A program made the position numbers and the translations under genes. A stretch of DNA of 64,000 nucleotides from Camelus dromedarius. Taxonomy: Eukaryota. Positions 2,030 through 60,265 of the stretch are shown here, piece after piece. The notes under the pieces were generated by a model, which ran no database searches, had not been told where the DNA came from, and saw only the letters and a list, made by a program, of their open reading frames with translations. The stretch is taken from positions 75,518,001 through 75,582,000 of the forward strand of contig NC_087436.1 in NCBI RefSeq assembly GCF_036321535.1. The letters run 5' to 3'. The stretch's first letter is position 1. Every line of letters starts with the position of its first letter.

Positions 2030-3400
2030 CTTAGGCAACAATTTTAATTTTTTTTTATCTTCTTGTTTTTATGGGCTCATACAAAATGGGTATTGTTTTC
2101 AGTGAGTATATGTAAATGTATATCTTTCTTAAATAATACCATGTTACAGACTTCATGTGGTTCTTTTTTCACATACCAGTGCGTTTTTCAGATTTGCCCA
2201 CATTGTTAGACTGTCTAGCCCTTTGCTTCTCATGCTACATAGTCCTTCCTGGTCTGCGTCCCCCACACCCATCCACTCTCCCAGGGACGGACACCATCAC
2301 TAGAGAGCACCCGTGAACACTTCAAACATGTCCATTGGCGAACCTGGGTGGGAGGTTCCCTGAGATGCATGGATAACCCAGGAGCAGAATTGTTGACTTC
2401 TTGACTCCGCATGTGCTTTGTGTAACTAAGTAGTGCCAGGTAGCTCACCAGCATCTACACTCCCAAAGGTAGGGGTTCTCTCACCCCTACATCCTTGCCA
2501 CCATTTGGCATTATCAAGCTTCAGGTTTTTTCAATACGTATACAGGGACATCCCATTTTAATTTGCATTTTTCTGATTATTAATGAGTTTGAGGTTATCG
2601 TCAATTCTTGTTGGACTTTTGTGTTTCCCCCTCAATAAATTGCTTTTTAATGTTTTCTCCACTGTTTTATTAGCCTTGCTGCCTTTTTATTGTAAATTTT
2701 ATGGAGTTCCTTGCCTGTTATAGATCTTTACTGTGTCATTCTTAACTATGCAAATATTTTCCCATTTTGTTACCTTTTGTGGTACACTTTGCTGAACAGA
2801 AATCTCTTAATTCATCATTTCTTACTTTAACATTTTGCTTTTGAATTTTTGTCTAAGAAGACCTATTCTGCTCAATTTCACAAAGAAATTATCCTATAAT
2901 TAATAGAAGAAATTCTATTAATTTCACAGTTTTATTTTTATGTAGACTGTTGACCCATCTGGAGTCCACTTATATATATATATATATATATATATAGGTT
3001 TAAGTAGGGATCTAGTTTGACTTCTCTCCATTTCATGATCCAGTTTCCACAGAATCGTCTAATAATTCAGTGTAACCTTCTCCATTGACCTTTATTGTAT
3101 ATTAAATTTCTATATGCATGTAGGTCTATCTCTGAGCTATTTCAGTAGTCTAAATTTCTATTCTTGTACTACTATCACATTGTATTGTTTTATTTATTTC
3201 TATTGCTTTCCAGTATGTCTCAGTGTCTAATTGGGCAGATTCTCCCTTTTTTTCCCTCATTTTCAAAGTTAACTATTCATGAACTTTAGAGTATGTTTAT
3301 TGAATTCCTAATAAAATTTAACTGGAAGTTTTATTAATATTGTATTGAACTATAGGCTAGTTTGGAGGAGAAATGATGTCTTCCTAATAATTTTATTTAA
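2030..3400 (-). mobile_element. Ancient degraded L1 (L1M-type) 3' part
   Basis: Antisense L1 ORF2-end/3'UTR-like text (ccaggagcagaattgttg, ttaatttgcatttttctgatt, gcaaatattttccc); boundaries approximate. Confidence 0.65.
2971..2996. repeat. (TA)13 microsatellite
   Basis: Read directly. Confidence 0.95.
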
Positions 3401-3730
3401 ATTTACAAATAATACTCCAAGTATTACTTTAGGTGTACCTTGAGATGTCAGTTCTAGAGTTAGAAACTTCAGAAGTTTTGGATAGGAGACTTTAAATTTT
3501 TTTAACAGTAGGATGGGTTTGAGATCATGTTACTATCAGTTTAATAAAAACAGTTATAGTCATGGGTTGATAAATTTACAAAAAAGGGTAACCACAAGCC
3601 AAAAATTTACAAAGGAGTCACAAAAATTAAATAAAATCCATGATAATATAAAGGAAAATTACCAAACCACAAAAGGAAGAAGAAAGGAACAAAGAGGATA
3701 TACCAATTCAACTGCAAAGATAAGTTCAAA

Positions 3731-6700
3731 ATGGGAATAAACACACATCTATCATTAATTACTGTAAATGTTAATGGACTAAATGCTCCAGTCAAAAGAC
3801 ACAGAGTGGCAGACTGGATAATAAAGCAAGAACCTTCAATATGCTGCATACAAGAGACCCACTTTAGGGAGAAGGACACATATAGATTGAGAGTGAAAGG
3901 ATGGAAAAGGATATTCCATGCAAATGGAAAAGCCAAAAAAGCAGGTGTTGCAGTACTGATTTCAGACAAAATAGACTTTAAAACAAAGGCCATAAAGAAA
4001 GATAAAGAAGGACATTTTATAATGATTAAAGGAGTGATACAAGATGAGGATATTACACTCGTTAATATATATGCACCCAATATAGGAGCACCTAAGTACA
4101 TACAAGAATTACTAACAGAGATAAAGGGGGATATTGATGGGAATACAATCATAGTTGGAGATTTTAACACTGCATTAACATCACTAGACAGATCTTCCAG
4201 ACAGAAAATAAACAAGGCAACAGAGAAATTAAATACTACAATAGAAAAACTAGATTTGGTGGATATTTTCAGAGCATTACACCCCCCAAAAATAGACTAT
4301 ACATTCTTTTCAAGTGCACATGGAACATTTTCCAGGATCGATCATGTACTTGGGCACAAAAGAAACGTCAACAATTTTAAGAAGATAGAAATTATCTCAA
4401 GCATCTTTACTGACCACAATGCCATGAAACTGGAAATCAACAACAGAGAAACAAAGGAGAAAAAAAGGAAAGCATGGAGATTAAACAATATGTTATTGAA
4501 AAAACAATGGATCAATGAGGAAATCAAAGCTGAAATTAAAAAATACCTTGAGACAAATGATAATGAAAGCACAACCACTCAAAACCTATGGGACACAGCA
4601 AAGGCAGTGCTAAGAGGGAAGTTTATAGCAATACAGGCCTTCCTCAAAAAAGAAGAACAATCTCAAAGAAACAATTTAACCCACCACCTGAATGAATTAG
4701 AAAAAGAAGAACAAAAAGCCCCAAAAAGCAGCAGAAGGAAGGAAATAATAAAGATCAGAGAGGAATTAAATACAATAGAGATTAACAAGACCATAGAAAG
4801 AATCAACCAAACCAAAAGCTGGTTTTTTGAAAAAGTAAATAAAATCGACAAACCTCTGTCCAAACTCACAAAGAAGAAAAAAGAGAGAGCACAAATTAGC
4901 GAAATAAGAAAGGAAAATGGAGAAATTACAACAAACAAAATAGAAATACAGAATATCATACGAGAATATTATGAAAAACTATATGGAACCAAACTGGATA
5001 ACCTAGAGGAGATGGACAAGTTTCTGGAAACATACTGTCCACCAAGACTGAATCAAGAAGAATCTGAACACTTGAACAATCCGATCACTAGAAAGGAAAT
5101 AGAAATAGCAATTAAAAACCTCCCTACAAATAGAAGTCCAGGACCGGACGGCTTCACCGGGGAATTCTACCAAACATACAAAGAAGAACTCATACCAGTC
5201 CTTCTCAAACTCTTCCAGACGATTGAAAAGGAGGGAATACTCCCAAACTCATTCTATGAAGCCACCATCACCCTGATACCAAAACCAGGCAAAGACACTA
5301 CAAAAAAAGAGAATTATAGGCCAATATCACTGATGAACATAGACGCCAAAATCCTCACCAAAATATTAGCAAATAGAATCCAACAACGCATAAAAAAGAT
5401 TATACATCATGACCAAGTGGGGTTCATCCCAGGGACACAAGGCTGGTTCAACATATGCAAATCAATCAGTGTAATACATCACATCAACAAGAGAAAGGAC
5501 AAAAACCACATGATCATCTCAATCGATGCAGAAAAAGCATTTGATAAAATTCAACACCCATTTATGATAAAAACTCTCGCCAAAGTGGGTATAGAGGTAA
5601 CATATCTCAACATAATAAAAGCTATATATGACAAACCTACAGCCAGCATAGTACTCAACGGTGAAAAAGTCAAAAGCTTCCCACTAAAATCTAGGACAAG
5701 ACAAGGATGCCCACTATCACCACTCCTATTCAACATAGTCCTGGAAGTCCTAGCCACAGCTGTCAGGCAAGAGAAAGAAATAAAAGGGATCCAAATTGGA
5801 AAAGAAGAGGTAAAAGTGTCATTATATGCTGATGACATGTTACTATATATAGAAAACCCTATAAGGTCCACACAAAAGCTACTAGAGCTGATTGAAGAAT
5901 TCAGCAAGGTAGCAGGTTACAAAATTAACGTTCAAAAATCAGTTGCATTTCTTTACACTAATGATAAATCAACAGAAGAAGAAAGTAAAGAAACAATCCC
6001 CTTTAAAATAGCACCCAAAGTAATAAAATATCTGGGAATAAATCTAACCAAGGAGGTGAAAGAATTATACACAGAAAACTATAAACCATTGATGAAGGAA
6101 ATTAAAGAAGACTTTAAAAAATGGAAAGATATTCCATGCTCTTGGATTGGAAGAATCAATATTGTTAAAATGGTCACACTGCCCAAGGCAATCTACAGAT
6201 TTAATGCAATCCCTATCCAATTACCCAGGACATATTTCACAGAACTAGAACAAATCATAATAAAATTCATATGGAACCATCAAAGACCTAGAATTCCCAA
6301 AGCATTACTGAAGAGAAAGAAAGAGGCTGGAGGAATAACTCTCCCAGACTTCAGACAATACTATACAGCTACAGTCATCAAGACAGCATGGTATTGGTAC
6401 CAAAATAGACATATAGACCAATGGAACAGAGTAGAGAGCCCAGAAATGAACCCACAAACTTTTGGTCAACTCATCTTTGACAAAGGAGGCAAGAATATAC
6501 ATTGGAATAAAGACAGTCTCTTCAGCAAATGGTGTTGGGAAAACTGGACAGCAGCATGTAAAACAATGAAGCTAGAACACTCCCTTACACCATATACAAA
6601 AATCAACTCAAAATGGATCAAAGACTTAAACATAAGACAAGATACAATAAACCTCCTAGAGGAAAACATAGGCAAAACATTATCTGACATACATTTAAAA

Positions 6701-7528
6701 AATTTTCTCCTAGAAGAAATAAAAGCAAGAATAAACAAATGGGACCTAATGAAACTTACAAGCTTCTGCACAGCAAAGGAAACCAGAAATAAAACAAGAA
6801 GAAAACCTACGGAATGGGAGAAAATTTTTGCAAGTGAAACCGACAAAGGCTTGATCTCCAGAATATATAAGCAGCTCATACGACTCAATAAGAAAAAAAT
6901 AAACAACCCAATCCAAAAATGGGCAGAAGACCTAAACAAGCAATTCTCCAAGGAAGACATACAAATGATCAAAAAGCACGTGAAAAAATGCTCAATATCA
7001 CTAATTATCAGAGAAATGCAAATCAAAACTACAATGAGGTATCACCTCACACCAGTCAGAATGGCCGTCATTCAAAAATCCACAAATGACAAATGCTGGA
7101 GAGGCTGTGGAGAAAGGGGAACCCTCCTACACTGCTGGTGGGAATGCAGTTTGGTGCAGCCACTATGGAAAACAGTGTGGAGATTCCTCAAAAGACTAGG
7201 AATAGACTTACCATATGACCCAGGAATCCCACTCCTGGGCTTGTATCCAGAAGGAAATCTACTTCAGGATGACACCTGCACCCCAATGTTCATAGCAGCA
7301 CTATTTACAATAGCCAACACATGGAAACAGCCTCAATGTCCATCAACAGGTGACTGGATAAAGAAGAAGTGGTATATTTATACAATGGAATACTACTCAG
7401 CCATAAAAACCGACAACATCGTGCCATTTGCAGCAACATGGATGCTCCTGGAGAATGTCATTCTAAGTGAAGTAAGCCAGAAAGAGAAAGAAAAATACCA
7501 TATGAGATTGCTCATATGTGGAATCTAA
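3731..7528 (+). CDS. LINE-1 ORF2p (APE endonuclease, reverse transcriptase, Cys-rich C-terminus), 1265 aa, uninterrupted
   Basis: Endonuclease motifs NVNGLN, QETH, YAP, GDFN, RIDH, TDH; RT motifs [19 protein letters not shown] (5825-5836), KYLG; CWRGC...HCWWEC knuckle (7094-7147). Confidence 0.98.
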
Positions 7529-7624
7529 AAAACAAAAACAAAAGCAAACAAACAAACAAAAACAAAGCGTAAATAAAGGACAGAAATAGACTCACAGACA
7601 GAGAATACAGACTTGTGGTTACCA

Positions 7625-7646
7625 GGGGGGTGGAGGGTGGGAAGGG
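7625..7646 (+). other. G-quadruplex-forming polypurine tract of the L1 3'UTR
   Basis: GGGGGG TGGA GGG T GGG AA GGG, four G-runs; a G-rich 3'UTR tract is a known feature of mammalian L1. Confidence 0.7.
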
Positions 7647-8849
7647 ATAGACTGGGATTTCAAAATTGTAGAATAGACTACACTGTATAGCACAGGGAAA
7701 TATACACAAAATGTTATGATAACTCACAGAGAAAAAAATGTGACAATGAGTGTGTATATGTCCATGAATAACTGAAAAATTGTGCTGAACACTGGAATTT
7801 GACACAACATTGTAAAATGATTATAAATCAATAAAAAATGTTAAAAAAAAAAAAAAAGAAACTTCAGAAGTTTTGGAGGGTGGGAGGGGAGAGTGCTTTT
7901 TAGATTCAGTTTTGCTTCTTTGTTCCAGTTATGAGTTGAGAGGCTGATTTTCTTCTTCACTGATATGAAGGCCAGGGCCTTTATCCATTTACTGAAGATG
8001 AATTTGCCTTACATGTTTGCTTCTAGAGGTGCCAGATCCTCCAGGATTTGGGATGGAACATTTGGCCTCATCACTTGCCATCTTTTTTCTCAAGTTCTTA
8101 AAATACTTTTCAGGAGGTTAGAATAGTGTTGGTAGATTAAAAGAACAGACAGAATAAGTCTTCACAGTTCTCTATACCTCAAACATTGAGTCTCTGGTCG
8201 TGAGAAGAGATTTGCTTTGCTTGTTTTTAAAGAATTTAACCAAGGAGTACGGAGTCAACTGAGTCATAGGCTTACCCGCAGCTGCATTCCCCTCCCCTCG
8301 CTTCCACTCTCGGGAAAGGCAGCTTTCCTCTGTTCTGTTCAAGGCTAATCTCCCCATCTGTGCTTTTGAATGTAATTCCCCTTTTTCTCCTAGATATGCT
8401 TTCAACGATTATTCAGACTCTTCTCTTGTTAAAAACCTTTGCCAGGGTCTGTATTGGCCTTGGGCTTTTACAGTATTGGAGAGACAAAATATCTTGTTAC
8501 CCTTTTAATTATTTCCTACCTGTGCCCTTCTGTTCACAGCCAAGCGCCTTTAAAGGAACAGTTTGTTTATTTTGTTTGTTTGTTTGTTTATTATTTAACA
8601 GTTAAAGAAGAAGGAGATGGATTTATTTCTATGTATTGATACAAATCCAAGAACTATCACACAGTTTTAAAAAGGGAAATAAACCACGTAATATGCTAAC
8701 ATTTATATAAAAACAAAAGGATATATATGTATATGAGTAAAGGACATATTTATGTAAAGAATATATGAAAATAGAAAGACCACTTTCCCACTAAGAATGA
8801 GTAAGAGTTTAATATCGTTGTAAAGAAACAGTTTATAATCATGGCCTTC

Positions 8850-10046
8850 GCTCCCATTCTGTCCGATGAATCCACTGAAATGGTTGTGGCACAGGTCACC
8901 AGGTCCCAATTTCTAAGGGACGTGAACCTTCTTCAGATTTTATTTGTCTTCTCTGTACTGTAAATGTCTTCCTTCTTGAACTTTTTTCGCTCTTGGGTTC
9001 TCAGCCACCATACTCCTGTTTTTCTCTCCTACCTTTGGATCACTTCTTCTCAGTCACTTTTGCTAGTTTTTTCTTCTCTCAGTGACTTTTGGTGTTCTCT
9101 TAATCTTTGACTACTTCTCTCTAATCCTTCCTCCTTTTACTGAATAAATCGACTCATTTCTGATTTCGGCAACCACCTCTCTGTAATGACCCCCGGGCCT
9201 CTTTCTTGAGTCCCAGAGTTATAACTCAGGCTGTTTGCGGGCCACATGTATGCCAAAGCGAGCCCATCCTAATCCCCCACACCTACCCTCCTTTTTGGGT
9301 TCCTTGAGTGGCGTCACTCATCTCCATGCCAGAGCCCTGGAAGCCATTTGAGACACTTTTCCCCGCACTACTCTCAAATCTGTCACCTCATTCACAGCCT
9401 TGATTCAACTCCCAATCATCGCGTTCCGTGAGCATTGCCACCATCTTCCAACCAGGCCCCCAACTCTCCTTTCTCACCTCTCCCAACTGTCTCCAAACTG
9501 AAGCCAAAGTGATCTTTCTTATATGCAAACATGACCCCATTTCTACTGTGTTTAAAACTGTGTAAGGGCTCCCCGTGTCTTTGACGGGATGAGAATCTCC
9601 ACTAGACTAGTCTGGTGTAGTTTCCATAGTCTGGCCCTTCACACTATCTCAGCTGAACGGAACTGCTGGTTCCCAGGATTCTCCTGGGGTCTGGGCCTGC
9701 GCTTGCCTTGCTGCTTCAGCCAGGAGTACATTCCCATCAGCCTGGCGTTCTCTGACTCACTTTCCAAGACAGCGCTCAAGGGTCATTTCTTCTCTGAACC
9801 CTTTCTTGACCTTTCATACCGCCTACCCCACACACATTTTGTTGGAATGTTTCTTGTGCCTACTAAGTGATGTGTTTAGTATTCCTAATATTACACGTGT
9901 TTATCTCCCTCTGGCAGACTAATAGGTCCCTTAAAGTAGAGACCAAGTTGATTTGGCTTTTGTGTCTCTACCACCTGACACAGGACCTAACACATAGCTT
10001 AAGAAATGTTTTGGGGGCTAAATGAATGAATAAGTGAATGAATAGA
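8850..10046 (+). mobile_element. L2 LINE 3' part
   Basis: Pyrimidine-rich degraded body ending in the L2 tail aaatgaatgaataagtgaatgaat. Confidence 0.65.
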
Positions 10047-10142
10047 TCCTGGAAGGTTGTGTGAAGTTCAGCAATTTCTACCTAATTTTTGTAGCATGAC
10101 CTTGTTTAGTAGAACTCTGAATTTCTGAATTCTCTCTCCAAC

Positions 10143-10275
10143 TAAGGTTGTCAGGTAAAACACAGAATGAAATATTTGGGACAAACATAAACTAAAAAAT
10201 TTATTCATTATTTATCTGGAAATTCAAATTTAGCTGGGCATCTGATATTTTTATTTGCTAACTCTGGCAACCCTA
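10143..10275. mobile_element. MER53-like hAT MITE (internally deleted)
   Basis: Termini taaggttgtcag ... tctggcaacccta; internal aaattcaaattt text. Confidence 0.75.
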
Positions 10276-10560
10276 CTGCCAAAACCATTTTGACTTTAAG
10301 TCCCATATTAAGTTGGATACACTTAATATATTGTATAGGTGGGCCTCAGTACTTGTTATGCTTAGTTCAATGAATAATTAGTTGGTTCTCCTTCAACTGT
10401 GAAAACAGAAATGTTGGAATCAAGGAAATAGAACTCAGCTGAGCAGCCAGAGAATGTGATTATTATGTTGATATCAACTGTGGATGTTGTAAAGAATAGA
10501 CTTTCTCTGCTCCCTTTGCTCACTATTGATTTTCTCTGATGAGTTTTCCTCCCCTTTTAG

Positions 10561-10701
10561 CTTGTGATCAATCCTGTAAGAGTTGTGGCCCCAGTAGTCC
10601 CAGATGTCTCACCTGTGCTGAGAAGACGGTGTTGAATGATGGGAAATGCATTTCTGAATGCCCTGATGGCTACTACGCTGATGCCACGGGCAGATGCAAA
10701 G
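10561..10701 (+). CDS. FRAS1: FRAS1 internal exon, furin-like repeat (A)CDQSCKSCGPSSPRCLTCAEKTVLNDGKCISECPDGYYADATGRCK
   Basis: ccccttttag|CT acceptor, AAAG|gtatga donor, 141 bp, phase 1-1; 8-Cys furin-like pattern matching recalled FRAS1 sequence. Confidence 0.96.
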
Positions 10702-10731
10702 GTATGACATGGGTAATTGTTAAATGGTTAT

Positions 10732-10765
10732 ATCATCATCATCATCATCACCATCTTCATCATCA
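10732..10765. repeat. Imperfect (CAT)n microsatellite
   Basis: Read directly; starts 30 nt after the 10701 donor. Confidence 0.9.
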
Positions 10766-11894
10766 AAAAGTATGTAACACGTTTGGTTATGCTTGCTGCT
10801 GTATGCTGCTCATTTGGAAATTTGTTTATATGATGGGAAATTGTCAAATTAAAAGGAGTCGCTTTTCCTTATAGAACCTATGTGGATCTGGTATGGGAGC
10901 AGGAAATATGGTGGATGCTGGAGGACTAGAGCAGTTAAATACAGGACTTATACATATCAATCATCATTAGAGATCATTGGGTCTTTTTGAAATGCCAAGA
11001 ACACCTTCAGTATCTTTGTACAGTCCTTGTGTACTTGTAAACCATCACTAACTTACGTTGTAGGTATGACAATCATTCCTTAGATGGCATTTATAAACAC
11101 ATATATTGGCAACTACATCACACCATAAAAATAAAATAAGTAAACCAGGTTTGATAGCTTGTAAAGCTAAAGTCTGTATCTATTGAAAATTTGGTTTTAT
11201 GTGCTATCCATAGTGTTTCTTTCAGACTTACACAACTTAAACTAGGAGACATTCCCATTTGAGGTGGTAACTTATTGCTGCCTACGATATTTTGATTGCC
11301 CCTCTTCTCCAAAACAAACCCACATATTCTTACTTCCACCTGTAGTGTCTGTCAGTGGCAGGGCATTTAGATTGGTCTCACAACCTTGTCTTTTCAACCT
11401 CCTGTTTATTTGCCAACCTCTTTACTCATCCAGTGTTTGTGCATCCCTTTTCCTCGATATCCTGCCCCCAACAGGCTCATCCTGTCTCCACACTCCCCTC
11501 TCCCAGCTCCTGACCCTTGTCCTCTGAGCCTTCTTTCAGTATCTCACTGCTGTCTGTTAGGATGGCATGGTACCATCTGTCTCTTAGAGTCAGAGGTGTC
11601 CCACCGCTACCCCCAGAACCAAAGCAGTGGAGATGCATGCTGACATCATCACATGTAGTGCTCAGATTCTTTCATATAATTCTTACTTAGGATCCTAGAA
11701 TGTCCAGCTGTAAGTATTTGAGATGACCATTTGGTCCAGCCTCTCACTGTGCATATGCCAAAGAAACTAGGCCTGGAGAGACTCAGACTTGGCTAAGGGC
11801 ATAAGTTAACAGACAAACCAGTCAAAAATGCCAGCGCTCCCAACACGCAGATCAATGAACTTTCCACTCTTCCCTATTCACATGGGCAGTTTTA

Positions 11895-12105
11895 GGTTCA
11901 GGCAAGCCTAGGGCTAAATCTCAGCTCTGCTACGAATGAACTCTGTGATCCTGAGTCAATTTTTTTTTAACTTTCTATGACTTCAGTTTTCTCATCTGCA
12001 AAATGGGGTTCACAGTACCTACCTCATAACGTTGCTATGAAGATTAAAAAGTGCAATATGTGTATAACACTTAGTTCAAATGCTAAGTAAAGGGTAGCTA
12101 ATAAA
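11895..12105 (+). mobile_element. MIR SINE
   Basis: cttcagttttctcatctgcaaaatgggg...acctacctcata...gaagattaaa. Confidence 0.85.
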
Positions 12106-12320
12106 TCATAGCTAGCACATGGGTGACAGATGGGTAAAGGAGCAATGTGGGTGGTTCTGGTGATATTACGACCTCTGAACGTGTCTTTTCCCTTGATTTG
12201 GTGTGACAGCTAGCGAACTGAGTGAGAGAACTGAGTGAGAGTGGCACATAAGGAGCCCAGCCAAGACATAGGCTTCTTAGTCACCTCAGTCCCACGTGTC
12301 CCCCGCACTCTCTTCCTCAG

Positions 12321-12461
12321 CGTGTCACCACTCGTGTGCCAGCTGCTCCGGCCCTGCCGCCTCTCAGTGTACTGCCTGCAGCGCCCCCCAGGCTCTGCGC
12401 CAAGGCCACTGCCTGCCCAGCTGCGGAGAGGGCTTCTACCCCAACCGCGGGGTCTGCAAAG
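12321..12461 (+). CDS. FRAS1: FRAS1 exon, furin-like repeat (A)CHHSCASCSGPAASQCTACSAPQALRQGHCLPSCGEGFYPNRGVCK
   Basis: tcttcctcag|CG acceptor, AAAG|gtatcg donor, 141 bp, in frame with neighbours. Confidence 0.96.
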
Positions 12462-13758
12462 GTATCGTTGGCGTCACCCTCATTCTTGAGAGACTTTCCC
12501 ATCGCGAGGATGTAGATTGAAGTTACTTTCCGGGGCAACTTTTCCTCTAGTGTATCCCATATGGTTATGTATGCATTACATGCCTTTTTTTTTTTTTTTT
12601 TCATTACTAAGGGATAATCTGAAAAAAAAAATCACATTGGAATATTTGTGAAGACATCCAAAAGGTCTTGATTTTTCTGGCTATCCTTGAGAGGAATTCG
12701 CCGTACATTAACACAAAACCCAACTCTTATTTCCTCCTTTTTCTATTCTCCAAGATGTGCTAATGGTTTTCTCAGTGTTCATTTTGTTTTTCCCTGAAGA
12801 ACTTCTTGTTAATGATATCGCTGAGCAAACTGAGAGTTACTAGCAATGCCTCTGGGCTGAAATAAAATGGAAAATCTTAAATACCTGTTTGCCAAAAAGG
12901 CTTTGGGCTCTTTGGGAAGGCAGATTCATTTGAGCCTTTTGAAACTAGAACATTGGGAGCAAACATTTTAATTAAGTGAAGTTAATTTACGTTTATTTAT
13001 ACGTAGGGCACCTTGGAAAAGAATATGAGGACAGTTAGCAGAAAAATATACTTAAAACAGGGCAGTTGCAGTAAATATTATGAAGAAGAAAATTTAGAGA
13101 ATCTTTTAAAGTACAGGAGAGTTTATTATATCAGAACATGGGTGTGAGAAATTCTGAGTACTCTCTTGGGCTCGGATTTTCACCAGTAGCCAAGGAAAAC
13201 CAGAAACTGTGATGGATTGTCAAATTCTTGTTGCTGCTCCAAAGGGGCCTCTTCCTTGTCTAGAAAAGCAGCCTTTTCTCACATAAATTCTAAGAGAAAT
13301 TTGTTGCCTGGACCCCTCTTTAGTGGGTGATGGATGACATAATGGATAGTAACACAACTACCATTTTTGCCAAAAATACAGTAATGGCCTTTATAGGAAT
13401 GCTTCTTAAAATCATCCATAAAAACTGAGGCCATAATGTTAAATCGTTATCCACTGTATGTGAATCTCTGGAGAACCAAGCCAATATTGTCCAGTGTGCT
13501 ATATTTTTTTTCCATGATCTAGTCTGGCAGCCTTTCAGGACCTGAGAGATTTGACTAGTTAACATCACCTTCGTTTGGCCTCTCACAAATAGTAATGTTA
13601 TCACCCTGTGCTTTGTATAGAATGCAGGAAAAACAGTTTTCTGAAAGGATGTATCTGGTGAACTGGTCCAAGTGGTTTTGATTTAATTAGGGTCTCCCCT
13701 TGGTGGTAACATGTACATGATCCTTAGATTGTTTTTTGCATTTTATTCCTATTGGCAG

Positions 13759-13935
13759 CCTGTCATTTCTCTTGCCTGACTTGTGTGGGTCCGCAGCCCT
13801 CTCAGTGCACCCAGTGCAAGAAGCCAGAGGAAGGACTGCAAGCTGAGCAGCTGTCTGGGGCAAACATCACCTCTGGCGAGTGCCTGCCCCAGTGCAGAGC
13901 CCATTTTCACTTGGAGAACACGGGGCTGTGTGAAG
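13759..13935 (+). CDS. FRAS1: FRAS1 exon, extended furin-like repeat (A)CHFSCLTCVGPQPSQCTQCKKPEEGLQAEQLSGANITSGECLPQCRAHFHLENTGLCE
   Basis: attggcag|CC acceptor, GAAG|gtgagt donor, 177 bp; KKPEEGLQ insert characteristic of FRAS1. Confidence 0.96.
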
Positions 13936-14305
13936 GTGAGTAAGCCCGATTTGAGGACATGTTGGGTAGCTTCTGGGCTCACCTCTTAAGAGATCCTGTG
14001 AGGTGGGGCCAAAGCCAGAAGATCTTAGTTTTCCTGTTACAATGGTTCCTGGATGCTTGTGGATGGAACCCAAGACCGGCATGCGAAAGCGTGGCCCCAC
14101 TGATGGCCTCCTTCCCTTTGTGAGTAATGGATGATCTTAAAGAGTGAACAGCTCTTACCCCTCTGTCCCCAGAGTCACACTCAGAAATTCCAGGGAGGGA
14201 TTCTTTCAGAGACAGTGTAAGTAGCTGAGACAGACCTAGAGCTCGCTGTAGAATTCCATTTATTTGTTCTAATTTGCTGCTCTGAATATGAATTGGTCCC
14301 TTCAG

Positions 14306-17127: not shown

Positions 17128-17267
17128 GAGGGGGAGGGTGTAGCTCAGTGGTAGAGTGCATGCTTAGACATGCATGAGGTCCTGAGTTCACTCTCTAGTA
17201 CCTCCATTAAAAAAAAAAAGCAAAATTAATAAATAAATAAAACCTAATTACTTCTCCCTCCCCCCAA
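17128..17267 (+). mobile_element. tRNA-derived SINE (camelid Vic-1-like), same family as the 1223 copy
   Basis: GGGGAGGGTGTAGCTCAGTGGTAGAG...GAGTTCACT...AAACCTAATTACTTCTCCC; TSD AAATGAACTTGG at 17116-17127 and 17268-17279. Confidence 0.9.
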
Positions 17268-43045: not shown

Positions 43046-43799
43046 TTTGTTTTTTTTTGTTTTTTTTTTTTTTTACTGAAGTATAATTGACCTACAACAC
43101 TGTGTTAGTTCCTGTTGTACAACATAATGATTCGATATTTCTGTTTGTTACAAAATGATCGCCATGATAAGTCTACTTACCATCTGTCACCATACAAAGT
43201 TATTACAGTGTTATTGACTGTGTTCCCCATGCTGTACATTTCAGCCCCATGACTCATTTATTTTGTTACTGGAAGTTTGTACCTCTTAATCTCCCTCACC
43301 TATTTCACTCATCCCCTCTAACCCCTTCCCCTCTGGCAACTGCCTATTTGTTCTGTGACTCTTGTTTCTGTTTTATGTTTGTTCATTTGCTTTGCTTTTT
43401 AGATTCCACATGTAGGTGAAGTCATATGGTATTTGTCTTTCTCTATCTGACCTATTTCGCTTAGCATAATACTCTCAAGGTTCATCCATTGTTGTTGCAA
43501 ATGGCAAGATTTCACTCTTTTTATATCTGAGTAATATTCCATTGTGTGTGTATGTGTATACCACATCTTCTTTATCCATTCATCTATTGGTGGACACTTA
43601 GGTTGCTTTCATACTGTGGCTTTCATAAATAATGCTGCAATGAACATAGGGGTGCGTGTATCTTTTCCAATTAGTGTTTTTGTTTTCTTCAGAAAGATCC
43701 CCAGAAGTGGAATTGCTGGATCGAATGGTAGTTCTATTTTTAATTTTTCTGAGGAGACTCCATGCTGTTTTCCAAAGTGGCTGTATCAGTTTACATCCC
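43046..43799 (-). mobile_element. 5'-truncated L1 (ORF2 C-terminus and 3'UTR)
   Basis: Poly-T tail; antisense ORF2-end text (ccacatcttctttatccattcatc, ggaattgctggatc); possible TSD ctctctct. Confidence 0.85.
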
Positions 43800-46464
43800 C
43801 TCTCTCTGCAACTTTTGAGCCCTTTCTACTAGCTTCTGGTAGGTGTATACCAAAAGGACGCACACAGCCACGCCTGGTTTAAGGCCTCCGGAGAATGAGA
43901 CTTGGCTAGGAGGAGAGAAGAAGTTGAGGGCTGTGAGGAATTTCTACGTTTGTCAGGCAATCAGAGGCAGAGAATGACCAAGAGGAGCCCCAGGGTAAAG
44001 CATGGAGGGGGAAGGAGGTCGAGGAGGAGGGGTGATCCAAAGTACTGCAGAGACTCCAGGTGGGTTAGGCGTTAGAGGAGTCCATTAGATTAGGTTGCTA
44101 AGAAGTTGTCAGATGCCAGTGAGATGAGGAGTTGGGGGTGAAGGGAAGACAAGAGATGGGGTGGTTGTAGAGAAAAGCTTTGGGGGGAAGTTGAGGTCAA
44201 GGAGAATGACGAGAGGTGGGCATAAAAGGGCAATAATGTTCAAATAATGTGGAAAAATAGATCAAAAAATGTGGTGGGGGAATTGGCCATTTCATCCTGT
44301 GAGGGGAGATGTAATGAAATAAAACTGGTCAACAGGAAAGAATCGAAGGTGCTCGTGCCCAGTGAGCTGAATCAAGGAGAAGGCGAACTACCCTGGGAGG
44401 AGGAGGAGGGTGGGCAGGGTGGGCTGGTGCTGGCGTGGGCGTGGGGGGGCAGAGCAAGGTTCCAGAGCAGCTGCCCTGAGAGCTGGAGGGAGCGTCCGTA
44501 ACCTCGCCCAGCTTCCTGGAGAAGTAATTAATGTGCATCACACTCTTCATTTAAACAGCTTCTAGACATCCCCAGGATCAGACAGATCCATAAATGTTCA
44601 TTTATTGCACCCACAAAGTACACCCGAGGTCGGCTTACTTTCTCTTCAAAGCATCCCCTGGTGATTATCCTTTTTCATTTCTCTAATTGTACACTAGAGC
44701 CAGCCTCAGTTAGATGCAACTAGTTTTTAGACCACTGAGCACCTGCAGGCCTTGCTGACGCATGCCTGAGCCCAGAACTCTCTGTAAGCACTTGCTTTTC
44801 AGAGGAAGAGGCCATGACTTTTCAAATAATGGAGCCTCGAATCGGGAATGTTTCCCTGATTTCCAGTCCTGACATGTACCCACTCATTAAGGTTATCATA
44901 AAGCAGGGTCACCTCCATTTGCTCCAGAACTTTTGAAGTGCTCCTGGCACTGTGAGGGGAGCCCGGGAAAAAGAAAACAAAAAGGTTGGCCTTGTGTGGA
45001 AACCATACACTAAGTCGGGGGAAATAGCCTCCTTATCAGATTTCTCTCAACACAGCCATCATTTCCTGTAGAATTTACTGAAGGGCTATAATGGGATTAG
45101 TTTGCCTCCGAGGGTATCAAGAATTGTTCCTAATATTGGCAAAAGGCTGCCTGTAATCTGAAACTCCCGAAGTTCAGAGAGAGGTCAGGGGCTCTTTGTC
45201 GGTGTACTGCTAGAAGAGTCAGCATTTTTGAGGAGGACAGTCTGGGTTCAGCTTCTGGAGTGGCTGCAGAGTCCCAGAAAGACTTCTCGTGTGGATGAGT
45301 GGGTGCCGGGAATGGGACTACAATCTCTTCTTTGGCAAGGAATGCATCTCAGATGATGAACCATTAAGAAAGTGTATCACTGAGGGTATAGAGAGAAAGA
45401 CCTGTTTCCACAGATTTTAGGAGACAGGCAATCTGTTTTATTGACAAGGATTTTTTTAGTCTAAACATCACTAGAATTCACAATCTCCATCTACAAGACT
45501 TTGAGATGAAACAAAACATACCTGGTTGTTGAGTGGTGCATTAGCAGCCGTAAACAGTGCTTTGAATCCTAAGGAGGAAGATGGACAGGTCCTATAACCA
45601 GAGCTCTTTCTTCTTTTTTCCTAGGCCTTTACTCCTTTTTCATTTTGGTGGGTAATTCAGGATTTGTGGATTTTCTTCCACCTTTGGGATGGAGGGGGGT
45701 AAATGGGATTTGAAGGATAATTACCACTTAAGGTAGGACAGAGGGCATTTTCACCTATCGTGGGAGCTGAACACAATCACGTTATTTAACTAAAGGATGC
45801 CTGTTATATGGGCAAGAATAAGAGGCAATTCTGGCCGTTCCAGATAATTAGTCCTATAGCTTTACCCACAACTGGTACAGCATCTGCTACGAACCAGGAA
45901 TCAAGTCATGAACATGACTTTCAACTCAACTCTTTTTTGTAACTTTACCTCTGGTTAGAGACTAAAATTTTCCACCATTCACCTATCGACCAGTCCTAAT
46001 CCCCCCATACCAACGCCTGAGACTGGTGTCCTGACTCTGGAAGGCCACGTTTGTGAGGAGGAGCTCGGGAGGGTGCTGAGCACAGCTCAGGAGCTGTGTG
46101 GATGGGAGCCATGCTGTGCTTGAGTTCGCAGAGGTCTTGGGGATATGTTGATATGATGAAGTGTTCCTGTTATCTAACAGTTCTCTCCATGCCCCTGGCA
46201 AGTATCTGTCACAGGCTGCCCTAGAACTTGAAGGTTGTTCAGTTGGAAAGGGATGAAAATTCAATTGCTGTGCTGGGCCCAGTCATTTGCTAAAATCCTC
46301 AAACACACAATTTGTACAGGTCCCAGGCTTCTGCTTTACTGCTGCACACTGCCTCTGGGCCACTCTCCGGCTGTCGGTGCTGCAGCAGTGGTAATTGCAA
46401 TCCCGTTTACCCTTCGGTGTCGTGATGAGCATTGTGCCTTCTCTGTGGCCCCCTCCCTCTCCAG

Positions 46465-58953: not shown

Positions 58954-60265
58954 CTGTGGTTCTCAGAGGTGGCAGCCCTTTAGGATTACCTGGGGAGCTT
59001 GCAAAATCACCAAGGCTCATCCCGGAACATTTAAGTTGGAATCTGGTGGTGGAGCCTAAGTATCAGTATTGTTTTAGAAGATCCCTATGTGATTCCTTAT
59101 TGTTACTCTTTCTGAGATACAATCCACATACCATAGAATTCACCCTTGAAATTATACAGTGGGTTTTTAGTATATCCACAGCGTTGTGAAACTATTATCA
59201 TTATCTAATTCCAGGTCATTTTAATCACCCTAAAAAGAAATCCAGTAACCATTAGTAGTCTCTCCCCACTGCCCCGTTGTCTTGGCCCCTGGCAACCCCT
59301 GACCTACTCTCTATCTCTATGGATTTTCCTCCTCTAGATATTTCACATAAATGATATCATTCATTTTATGTCTGGCTGCTTTCACTTGGCACAGTATTTT
59401 CAAGGTTCCTTCATGTTAGAGCACGTATCAGTACATCATTTCTCTCTATGGTTGAATAATATTCCATTGTATGGATGTACCACATTTTGTTTATTCACTC
59501 ATCAATTGATGGACATTTTGATTGTTTCCACTTTTGGATATTATGAATAACACTGCTGTGAACGTTTGTGTACAAGTTTTTGTGTGGACAGATGGTTTAA
59601 TACTCTTGAGTATATACCTAGGAGTAGAATTGCTGGATCATATGATAGCTCTGTGTTTAATTGCTTGAGGAACTACTAGCCTGTCTCCCAAGCAGCCGCA
59701 CCACTTTACATTCCCACCAGCAGTATATGAGATTTCTAGTTTCTCCACCCCCTCGGGAACATGTTTTATTGTTCCTCCTAGTGGGTATTAAATGATACCA
59801 TCTTGTGGTTTTGATTCGAATTTCCCTGATGACTGATGATATTTGAACACCTTTTCATGTGCTTATTGTCCTCTTGTATATCTTCTTTGGAGACATGCCT
59901 ATTCAGATTCTTTGCCTGTTTAAAATTAGGTTATTTATCATTTAATGAGTTGTAAGAATTCTTGTTATTTTCTGGATACAAGAGGGGGACAAGTCCTTTT
60001 TCAGATACGTAATTTGCAAATATTTTCTCCTATTCTGTGGATTGTCTTTTCACTTTCTTGCTGGAAGCATAGAGGTTTTTAATATTAATGATGTCCAATA
60101 TATCCATTTTTTCTTTTGTCACTTGTGCTTTTGGTGTCAGATCTGAGAAAGCATTGCCTAATTCAAGATCACAAAGATTTTCTTCTATATTTTCTTCTAG
60201 GAGTTTTATAGATTAACGTTGAGACCTTATGTTATTCTCATGTGCATCCAGGGTGAGAACCACTA
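58954..60265. mobile_element. MER5B-like hAT-Charlie MITE split into two halves (58954-59095, 60225-60265) by an L1
   Basis: Termini ctgtggttctca ... tgagaaccacta; internal text matches recalled MER5B consensus. Confidence 0.75.
59096..60224 (-). mobile_element. L1MB-like 3' fragment nested in a MER5B
   Basis: Antisense L1 3'UTR/ORF2-end text; degenerate 13-bp TSD at 59083-59095 and 60225-60237. Confidence 0.85.

Follow-up and report, generated by a model that had tools for sequence, protein, structure and literature searches.

A promoterless ORF2-only L1 of the dromedary, probably an old passenger of a FRAS1 intron

Organization of the locus

The window, a 64,000-nucleotide stretch of contig NC_087436.1 of Camelus dromedarius, carries exons of FRAS1, a developmental basement-membrane gene whose loss leads to Fraser syndrome. 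These exons are found on the plus strand from position 10561 onward and show 71 to 91% identity to two named FRAS1 proteins. An L1 element occupies positions 3462 to 7877, including its target-site duplications (TSDs), in sense to the FRAS1 exons. Because the first FRAS1 exon in the window is internal (residue 560 of P0245), the element should lie within an intron; thus, the sense orientation that had originally been predicted is seen directly, whereas the intronic position is deduced, the preceding exon being beyond the window and more than 3.4 kb away. The features discussed below are as follows.

2998 to 3168, minus strand: remnant of an old antisense L1 ORF2 (34% amino acid identity), approximately 300 bp before the insertion site
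3462 to 3482: 5' TSD, 21 bp; pre-insertion site TT/AGAAA
3483 to 3730, plus strand: last (3') 248 nt of the inter-ORF region, with no ORF1 match and no Pfam match (family spacer, 442 bp)
3489 to 3508, plus strand: candidate cryptic 3' splice site, read from the sequence, with a T-run and a CAG ending at 3508
3731 to 7528, plus strand: ORF2, 1265 codons, open; full-length match to the human ORF2p structures 8UW3 and 8SXT
3758 to 4417, plus strand: APE-type endonuclease domain (PF03372), aa 10 to 229; N13, E42, Y114, D144, N146, D204, and H229 present
5276 to 6046, plus strand: reverse transcriptase (RT) domain (PF00078), aa 516 to 772; D599, F604, and YADD (699 to 702) present
7094 to 7147, plus strand: C-terminal CCHC motif (C1122-C1126-H1134-C1139), read from the sequence
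7529 to 7842, plus strand: 3' UTR, with a G-rich tract (7625 to 7646) and AATAAA (7830 to 7835)
7843 to 7856, plus strand: A-tail, 14 uninterrupted A residues, directly before the 3' TSD
7857 to 7877: 3' TSD, matching 3462 to 3482
10561 to 10701, plus strand: closest downstream FRAS1 exon (furin-like repeat), separated from the element by 2684 bp

The two TSD copies agree at 21 of 21 nucleotides, a match with a chance probability of approximately 1e-8 in 64 kb, and the target site TT/AGAAA conforms to the L1 endonuclease consensus. With its TSDs, 3' A-tail, TT/AAAA-like site, and an ORF2 that combines the APE endonuclease, RT, and CCHC, the element shows the hallmarks of a mammalian LINE-1 inserted by target-primed reverse transcription (TPRT). 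In spliced integrated L1s (SpIREs), a piece of the 5' UTR is fused through a splice acceptor to L1 sequence further downstream; the 5' end of this element (position 3483) precedes the acceptor-like AG at 3508 by 25 nt instead of coinciding with it, although a short 5' UTR piece may be present. The ORF2 ATG follows 248 nt after this 5' end. Searches with three ORF1-bearing proteins found no ORF1 remnant upstream of ORF2, and the inter-ORF region of the camelid family L1-1_Vpa is 442 bp long according to Table S2 of PMC4072516, which places the 5' break inside the spacer. The element thus has neither the 5' UTR promoter nor the intact ORF1 of an autonomous L1, and its intact ORF2 puts it among the ORF2-only L1s. 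On all these points of anatomy, from the identical 21-bp TSDs and the clean A-tail to the stop-free 1265-codon ORF2 and the truncation that removed promoter and ORF1, the original prediction was accurate.

ORF2 protein and family assignment

Compared with human L1 ORF2p (PDB 8UW3, 8SXT, and 8C8J), the camel protein matches over its full length and has the same EN-RT-CCHC order and all of the catalytic residues, but it is 10 residues shorter and carries YADD instead of FADD, a family-wide difference. A search for near-length homologues returned no camelid proteins, the best match having 78% identity, and a search of representative proteins added one dromedary fragment, P0270. Camel fragments are 96 to 98% identical to this ORF2p. 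Exact scans of metagenome contigs with the 3' junction and with the ORF2 start gave 0 matches each.

The closest published relative is the Repbase alpaca L1, L1-1_Vpa, which is the youngest known camelid L1 family. Compared by eye with the protein as printed in Text S2 of PMC4072516, this ORF2p is 97% identical, with 37 differences at 1264 positions, of which 9 are common to the camel sister copies, 23 are private, and 5 are unresolved. The two have the long inter-ORF spacer in common and, relative to cattle L1-BT, lack the same 7 residues in the wrist as well as the same single residue near position 1030. However, the dromedary copy lacks the 5' UTR, ORF1, and approximately 194 nt of the spacer, and at the 9 residues mentioned it has the camel sister state rather than the alpaca consensus. 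Near-identity to the family ORF2p combined with these diagnostic indels assigns the copy to L1-1_Vpa, as a 5'-truncated member of the branch of this family found in Camelus.

The shortfall amounts to 6 to 7 residues near aa 990, where 97 of 102 homologues are longer. The idea that this copy alone had lost residues there, in the “star cluster” that is sensitive to mutation, was rejected upon finding the shortfall in L1-1_Vpa as well. An alignment-free structure prediction of the ORF2p core reached a pLDDT of 38.6 and was not usable.

Private changes and age of the insertion

At 14 of 751 positions (approximately 1.9%), this ORF2p departs from two or three camelid sister copies that agree with one another, in a sister set that consists of five partial proteins. 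Such private differences number 0 of 437 in P0161 and 1 of 385 in P0249, both of which may be collapsed assemblies. When the published L1-1_Vpa protein is added to the sisters, the private positions number 23 to 28 of 1264. Conserved and variable columns are hit equally (6 of 337 versus 8 of 414; p=1.0), unlike the lineage-fixed changes, which fall on 20 conserved and 188 variable columns (p=0.002), and the private changes are spread evenly along ORF2 (KS p=0.86). This pattern argues for neutral decay after insertion, with no selection on the protein. Six private changes affect columns that are at least 90% conserved, while leaving the catalytic residues intact; V213, V623, V647, and R655 replace residues conserved in 95 to 99% of mammalian copies, the last three at RT-domain columns with 97 to 99% conservation. 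Human G624, L648, and G656 turned up nowhere in the literature covered, from which the per-mutant data of 10.1101/721357 are excepted; those data bear on whether this ORF2p could function. Among other mammalian copies, 11 to 20% likewise carry the private residues G2, D189, R357, R439, and I711, which may characterize a subfamily not represented among the sisters.

The protein differences translate into an estimated nucleotide divergence of 0.88% (0.56 to 1.32), which would date the insertion to roughly 4 million years (My) ago (2.5 to 10 My, depending on the rate), with approximately 4 My at 2.2e-9 per year and 7 My at 1.3e-9; this age is derived from protein differences under an assumed mutation model and not from a DNA alignment. 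The divergence is 10 to 17 times the coalescent depth expected within the species, with pi values of 0.88e-3 and 0.52e-3 taken from published camel diversity, which suggests that the insertion is probably fixed. It is perhaps common to the dromedary and the Bactrian camel, which split 4.4 to 7.3 My ago, and is probably absent from the alpaca. The element had been predicted to be a very young, possibly polymorphic insertion. Its TPRT origin, sense orientation, ORF2-only structure, and descent from the youngest known camelid family all stand; extreme youth is not supported by the private changes, which accumulated irrespective of conservation, nor is polymorphism by the depth of the divergence.

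We therefore favor, with good but not complete confidence, a decaying L1-1_Vpa-type copy that most likely is a fixed passenger of the FRAS1 intron. TPRT would have placed it in sense at TT/AGAAA, and reverse transcription would have stopped in the spacer, leaving neither promoter nor ORF1, so that the copy was presumably dead on arrival. Neutral mutation to approximately 0.9% would have followed, with ORF2 staying open by chance, and the L1 would be transcribed only within FRAS1 pre-mRNA and then spliced out, probably with no effect on FRAS1. Such a copy is ordinary, since some hundreds of camel L1 copies have an open ORF2, and could at most serve as a presence/absence marker for the time around the split of dromedary and Bactrian camels; a segregating empty allele or a chimeric FRAS1-L1 RNA, if found, would give it importance.

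Two observations run counter to this explanation: a model with assumed indel ratios gives an open ORF2 at 0.9% divergence a probability of only 2 to 7% per copy, and identical TSDs suit a young element. At this divergence, identical TSDs are expected in 68% of cases, and the two features together are no proof of youth. Our literature searches found no published description of this insertion. Of 24 rows matched by the 3' flank (7878 to 13940), 14 are of assembly size and contain a fraction of 1.00 of its 637 words; they represent three organisms and 8 studies, and 8 rows are flagged as a possible source of the DNA. The flank is thus shared, which is uninformative on the insertion itself; the RNA rows X15 to X20, with shares of 0.07 to 0.43, are left out of account.

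Alternative explanations

Judging from motifs in the sequence, the element may affect FRAS1 RNA. At any age, it could reduce full-length FRAS1 by slowing elongation, by cryptic splicing at 3508, or by polyadenylation at its own AATAAA signals; such interference is described for intronic L1s (PMC3192792). It is inserted in sense, while all three older L1 fragments of the window run antisense, and it contains 20 AATAAA motifs in 4.4 kb (4.6 per kb, versus 0.7 to 1.7 per kb in the rest of the window). The acceptor-like site at 3508 has a pyrimidine share of 0.69, within the range of true FRAS1 acceptors (0.62 to 0.94), yet the flanking intron holds 35 acceptor-like sites that are just as good and go unused. 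LINEs are depleted within 2 kb of exons, and only 0.7% of human LINEs beyond that zone give chimeric ESTs. Mutagenic sense intronic L1 insertions (PMC3088655) resemble the camel copy in orientation and in being kilobases long, but all five human cases are less than 2 kb from an exon, whereas the camel copy keeps a distance of 2.7 kb even to its nearer exon, outside the zone of underrepresentation, and looks old. It also has no L1 promoter, and its apparent persistence in FRAS1 for millions of years speaks against a large effect. We consider a reduction of full-length FRAS1 unlikely.

Somewhat less probable still is that the insertion is recent and remains polymorphic, its apparent divergence having come from a donor L1 that was older and mutated yet functional, or from RNA mobilized in trans. 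The open ORF2, identical TSDs, and unbroken A-tail would fit, and camel L1 has been scored active; the tail, however, has just 14 A residues. A donor would need an ORF2p working in cis, given the cis preference of L1 (PMC4072516), yet a signal of purifying selection is absent, and approximately half of the trialanine changes strongly reduce human L1 retrotransposition (10.1101/721357).

The suggestion that the copy acts as an ORF2-only helper fares worse. ORF2-only L1s are a known and abundant class, with 186 members in the dromedary and 49 in the wild camel (Ivancevic et al. 2016, PMC5203782, Table 6) and 105 “ORF2 alone” L1s in hg38 (PMC12179785, Table 1). The camel copy is a further member, sharing an intact ORF2 without an intact ORF1, although these counts also cover full-length elements whose ORF1 is broken but whose promoter is kept, while the camel copy is promoterless. 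Beside them, 326 promoter-bearing dromedary L1s have both ORFs intact (PMC5203782, Table 6) and already supply ORF2p, so that a promoterless, mutated copy is not a needed helper. Camels have no Alu (PMC8605555), and a helper driven by the host promoter would mobilize camel tRNA-derived SINEs: FRAS1 would be spliced to 3508, a phase-1 splice would reach a stop after 4 codons at 3520, and translation would reinitiate on ORF2. All catalytic residues are present, the literature describes ORF2 translation by reinitiation after an upstream stop, and monocistronic ORF2 mRNAs with RT activity, one fifth of which are intragenic, are reported in human brain (PMC12179785). Against this stand the three further ATGs and 210 nt between that stop and the ORF2 start, the lack of selection on the protein, and the changes at columns 95 to 99% conserved, which make such a helper very unlikely. 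Equally hard to credit is the notion that the true copy is nearly identical to the family and that assembly errors created its private differences: repeats are difficult to polish, but long-read errors are mainly indels, which would disrupt the intact frame, and collapse of copies should bring the sequence closer to the family state rather than further from it.

FRAS1 is among the selection candidates in Iranian dromedaries (PMC9187634); it appears in 0 of the 11 supplementary files of a dromedary CNV paper (PMC11513024), a count that is uninformative because the gene file was covered only in part. Least probable of all is a combined scheme in which the L1 borrows the FRAS1 promoter via 3508, so that FRAS1-expressing epithelia and embryos secrete a truncated N-terminal piece of FRAS1 and make ORF2p by reinitiation, from an allele that is limited to one camel species, segregates via dromedary-Bactrian hybridization, and underlies that selection signal.

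Structure of the L1 copy

The element is a real yet ordinary ORF2-open, 5'-truncated camel L1, with the following features:
3462-7877, + strand, L1 element including both TSDs, ORF2 and the A-tail
3731-7528, + strand, ORF2, 1265 codons with zero stops
7830, + strand, AATAAA at the 3' end of the element
AG ending at 3508, + strand, candidate acceptor-like site, located 26 nt inside the element

The original prediction of identical 21-bp TSDs, a fully open ORF2, and a clean A-tail was borne out: 3462-3482 and 7857-7877 match over all 21 nt (computed chance ~1e-8, far beyond coincidence), the 1265 codons are read on the + strand without a stop, and 14 A residues end the element. The target site before insertion was TT|AGAAA. 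A search with three ORF1-bearing proteins found no ORF1 upstream of ORF2, and Table S2 of PMC4072516 gives a 442-bp spacer for the camelid family L1-1_Vpa (described in alpaca), so the break, 248 nt before the ORF2 ATG, falls inside the inter-ORF spacer, as had been proposed. What is left of the spacer includes an 84-codon open frame (3486-3737, + strand), in which an ATG at 3513 starts 75 aa that end slightly beyond the ORF2 start, out of frame; a Pfam search with this frame gave zero matches.

Solved human ORF2p structures align along the entire length of the element's ORF2p, in which Pfam detects the endonuclease and RT domains, the CCHC motif is present, and the catalytic residues N13, E42, Y114, D144, N146, D204, H229, D599, F604, D701, and D702 are kept. 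Around residue 990 (window ~6700-6720), the camelid wrist is 6 to 7 residues shorter than in 97 of 102 other mammalian copies. This shortfall is family-wide, being found in L1-1_Vpa too, and lies inside a part reported as mutation-sensitive in human L1 (10.1101/721357).

Family affiliation

The closest named ORF2p sequences place the source in the genus Camelus (C. bactrianus P0248, 96.5%; C. dromedarius P0270), and one 90% cluster holds four camelid ORF2p fragments. P0248 is XP_074230101.1, listed in RefSeq for C. bactrianus as "lipase member J isoform X1"; its residues 1-907 are L1 ORF2p. This protein from another locus is either an exonised L1 or an artefact of annotation. Two or three camelid sister fragments cover 751 ORF2p positions, and at 14 of these (1.9%) the sisters agree while the element has another residue; the sisters' own private differences are 0/437 (P0161), 1/385 (P0249), 11/751 (P0248), and 12/314 (P0250). 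Comparison by eye with the published L1-1_Vpa protein gave 37 differences over 1264 positions, 9 of them common to the camel sisters, 23 private, and 5 without sister coverage. The nine sister-shared residues suggest a Camelus sub-branch and an insertion after the alpaca split.

Age and fixation

Age was taken from ORF2p protein differences, not from a DNA alignment. Under an assumed mutation model whose missense share is 0.69, the 23 private changes correspond to 0.88% nucleotide divergence (95% range, 0.56-1.32%), or to 1.07% if all 28 changes are counted and 0.69% if only 18 are. Using the values of PMC7305198 (a 5-year generation and 1.1e-8 per generation), the copy would be 4.0 My old (2.5-6.0); an assumed slower rate of 1.3e-9 per year yields 6.8 My. 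Since these estimates overlap the dromedary-Bactrian split (4.4-7.3 My; PMC7305198), it is a toss-up whether both species carry the insertion. A rate-free coalescent argument is stronger than such dating. Taking the expected coalescent depth per lineage as ~pi, which needs no mutation rate, and the nucleotide diversities given in PMC7305198 (dromedary, 0.52e-3; Bactrian camels, 0.88e-3), the copy is 17 times older than this depth in dromedary (lower bound, 11) and 10 times in Bactrian camels (lower bound, 6), and a neutral allele so old should therefore be fixed, barring hybridisation or balancing selection that keeps the empty allele. These estimates do not support the original prediction of a "very young" copy; at 0.9% divergence, TSDs that remain identical are expected in 68% of cases.

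The copy combines TPRT hallmarks, spacer truncation, membership in the L1-1_Vpa family, and unselected private changes. Probably it was dead on arrival: it would have inserted by TPRT, losing its 5' end within the spacer, stayed inactive from the outset, gathered neutral mutations over a few My, and become fixed, being spliced out with the FRAS1 intron while ORF2 stayed open by chance. Against this reading stand the small sister set, five private residues that 11-20% of the copies in other mammals also have and that may represent subfamily states, and a probability of only 2-7% that ORF2 stays open at 0.88% divergence (assumed indel ratios, 0.1 and 0.05). Across a whole genome such low per-copy odds are unsurprising, given the L1 counts of Ivancevic et al. 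for the dromedary assembly (PMC5203782 Table 6): both ORFs in 326, ORF1 only in 677, and ORF2 only in 186. For hg38, Table 1 of PMC12179785 gives 105 "ORF2 alone" sequences.

Relation to FRAS1

Two named FRAS1 proteins gave 10 and 9 exon-sized matches between 10560 and 60681 (71-91% identity), with AG/GT borders at 12 FRAS1 exons; like ORF2, the matches lie on the + strand, confirming the sense orientation of the L1. Residues 560-606 of P0245, a named FRAS1 protein, correspond to the first FRAS1 exon of the window. Paralogous repeats were the only match within the window for the preceding exon, so the L1 probably sits in the intron just before that first exon, at a distance of 2684 bp, with the previous exon >3.4 kb away. 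Three L1 ORF2 remnants of greater age (2998-3168, 43402-43816, and 59339-60233) are all antisense to FRAS1, the first ~300 bp from the insertion point. PMC9187634 names FRAS1 as a selection candidate in Iranian dromedaries and does not link the element to that signal; a literature search found no paper describing this insertion.

Measurable interference with FRAS1, which is compatible with the other readings, appears unlikely. In its favor, the sense strand of the element carries 20 AATAAA motifs (4.6 per kb versus 0.7-1.7 elsewhere), and the acceptor-like site at 3508 has a pyrimidine share of 0.69, within the 0.62-0.94 span of 12 true FRAS1 acceptors. However, 35 sites in the flanking intron meet the same acceptor cut-off, and a phase-1 splice at 3508 is predicted to reach a stop after four codons, separated from ORF2 by 210 nt that contain three ATGs. 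In human, long LINEs are reported to be depleted within 2 kb of an exon, a zone that also holds all five mutagenic L1 cases; beyond it, 0.7% of LINEs have chimeric ESTs (PMC3088655). This element lies beyond that zone. A mild effect on FRAS1 may exist; a strong one is unlikely because the allele is so old.

Private changes and remaining alternatives

In columns from 257 non-camelid homologues (conserved, at least 90%), private changes fall in 6/337 conserved and 8/414 variable columns (Fisher p=1.0) and are evenly distributed along ORF2 (KS p=0.86), in contrast to lineage-fixed changes (20 conserved versus 188 variable; p=0.002 for private against lineage-fixed). At V213, V623, V647, and R655, the element departs from a residue shared by the camel sisters, L1-1_Vpa, and 95-99% of mammalian copies. 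Changes so even and blind to conservation argue for neutral mutation after insertion, not inheritance from a working donor; judged from the protein alignment, they appear unselected and to have arisen after insertion. A recent copy of a mutated donor L1, against which this pattern speaks, is likewise unlikely. Read on the sense strand, the inferred private missense changes in 3731-7528 include 8-10 A>G and zero T>C (post hoc p 0.02-0.05, against an expected share of 0.68), which would be a weak fit to the strand asymmetry that transcription can cause in a transcribed intron.

That the copy acts as a host-driven ORF2 helper is highly improbable, since L1s with both ORFs and their own promoter already supply ORF2p; an assembly error is equally improbable. 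The helper substrate would presumably be the camel tRNA-derived SINE, of which the window has copies; Alu is absent from camel genomes (PMC8605555). Two tRNA-headed camelid SINE copies lie at about 1225-1340 and 17131-17260, the latter with its head motif at 17131.
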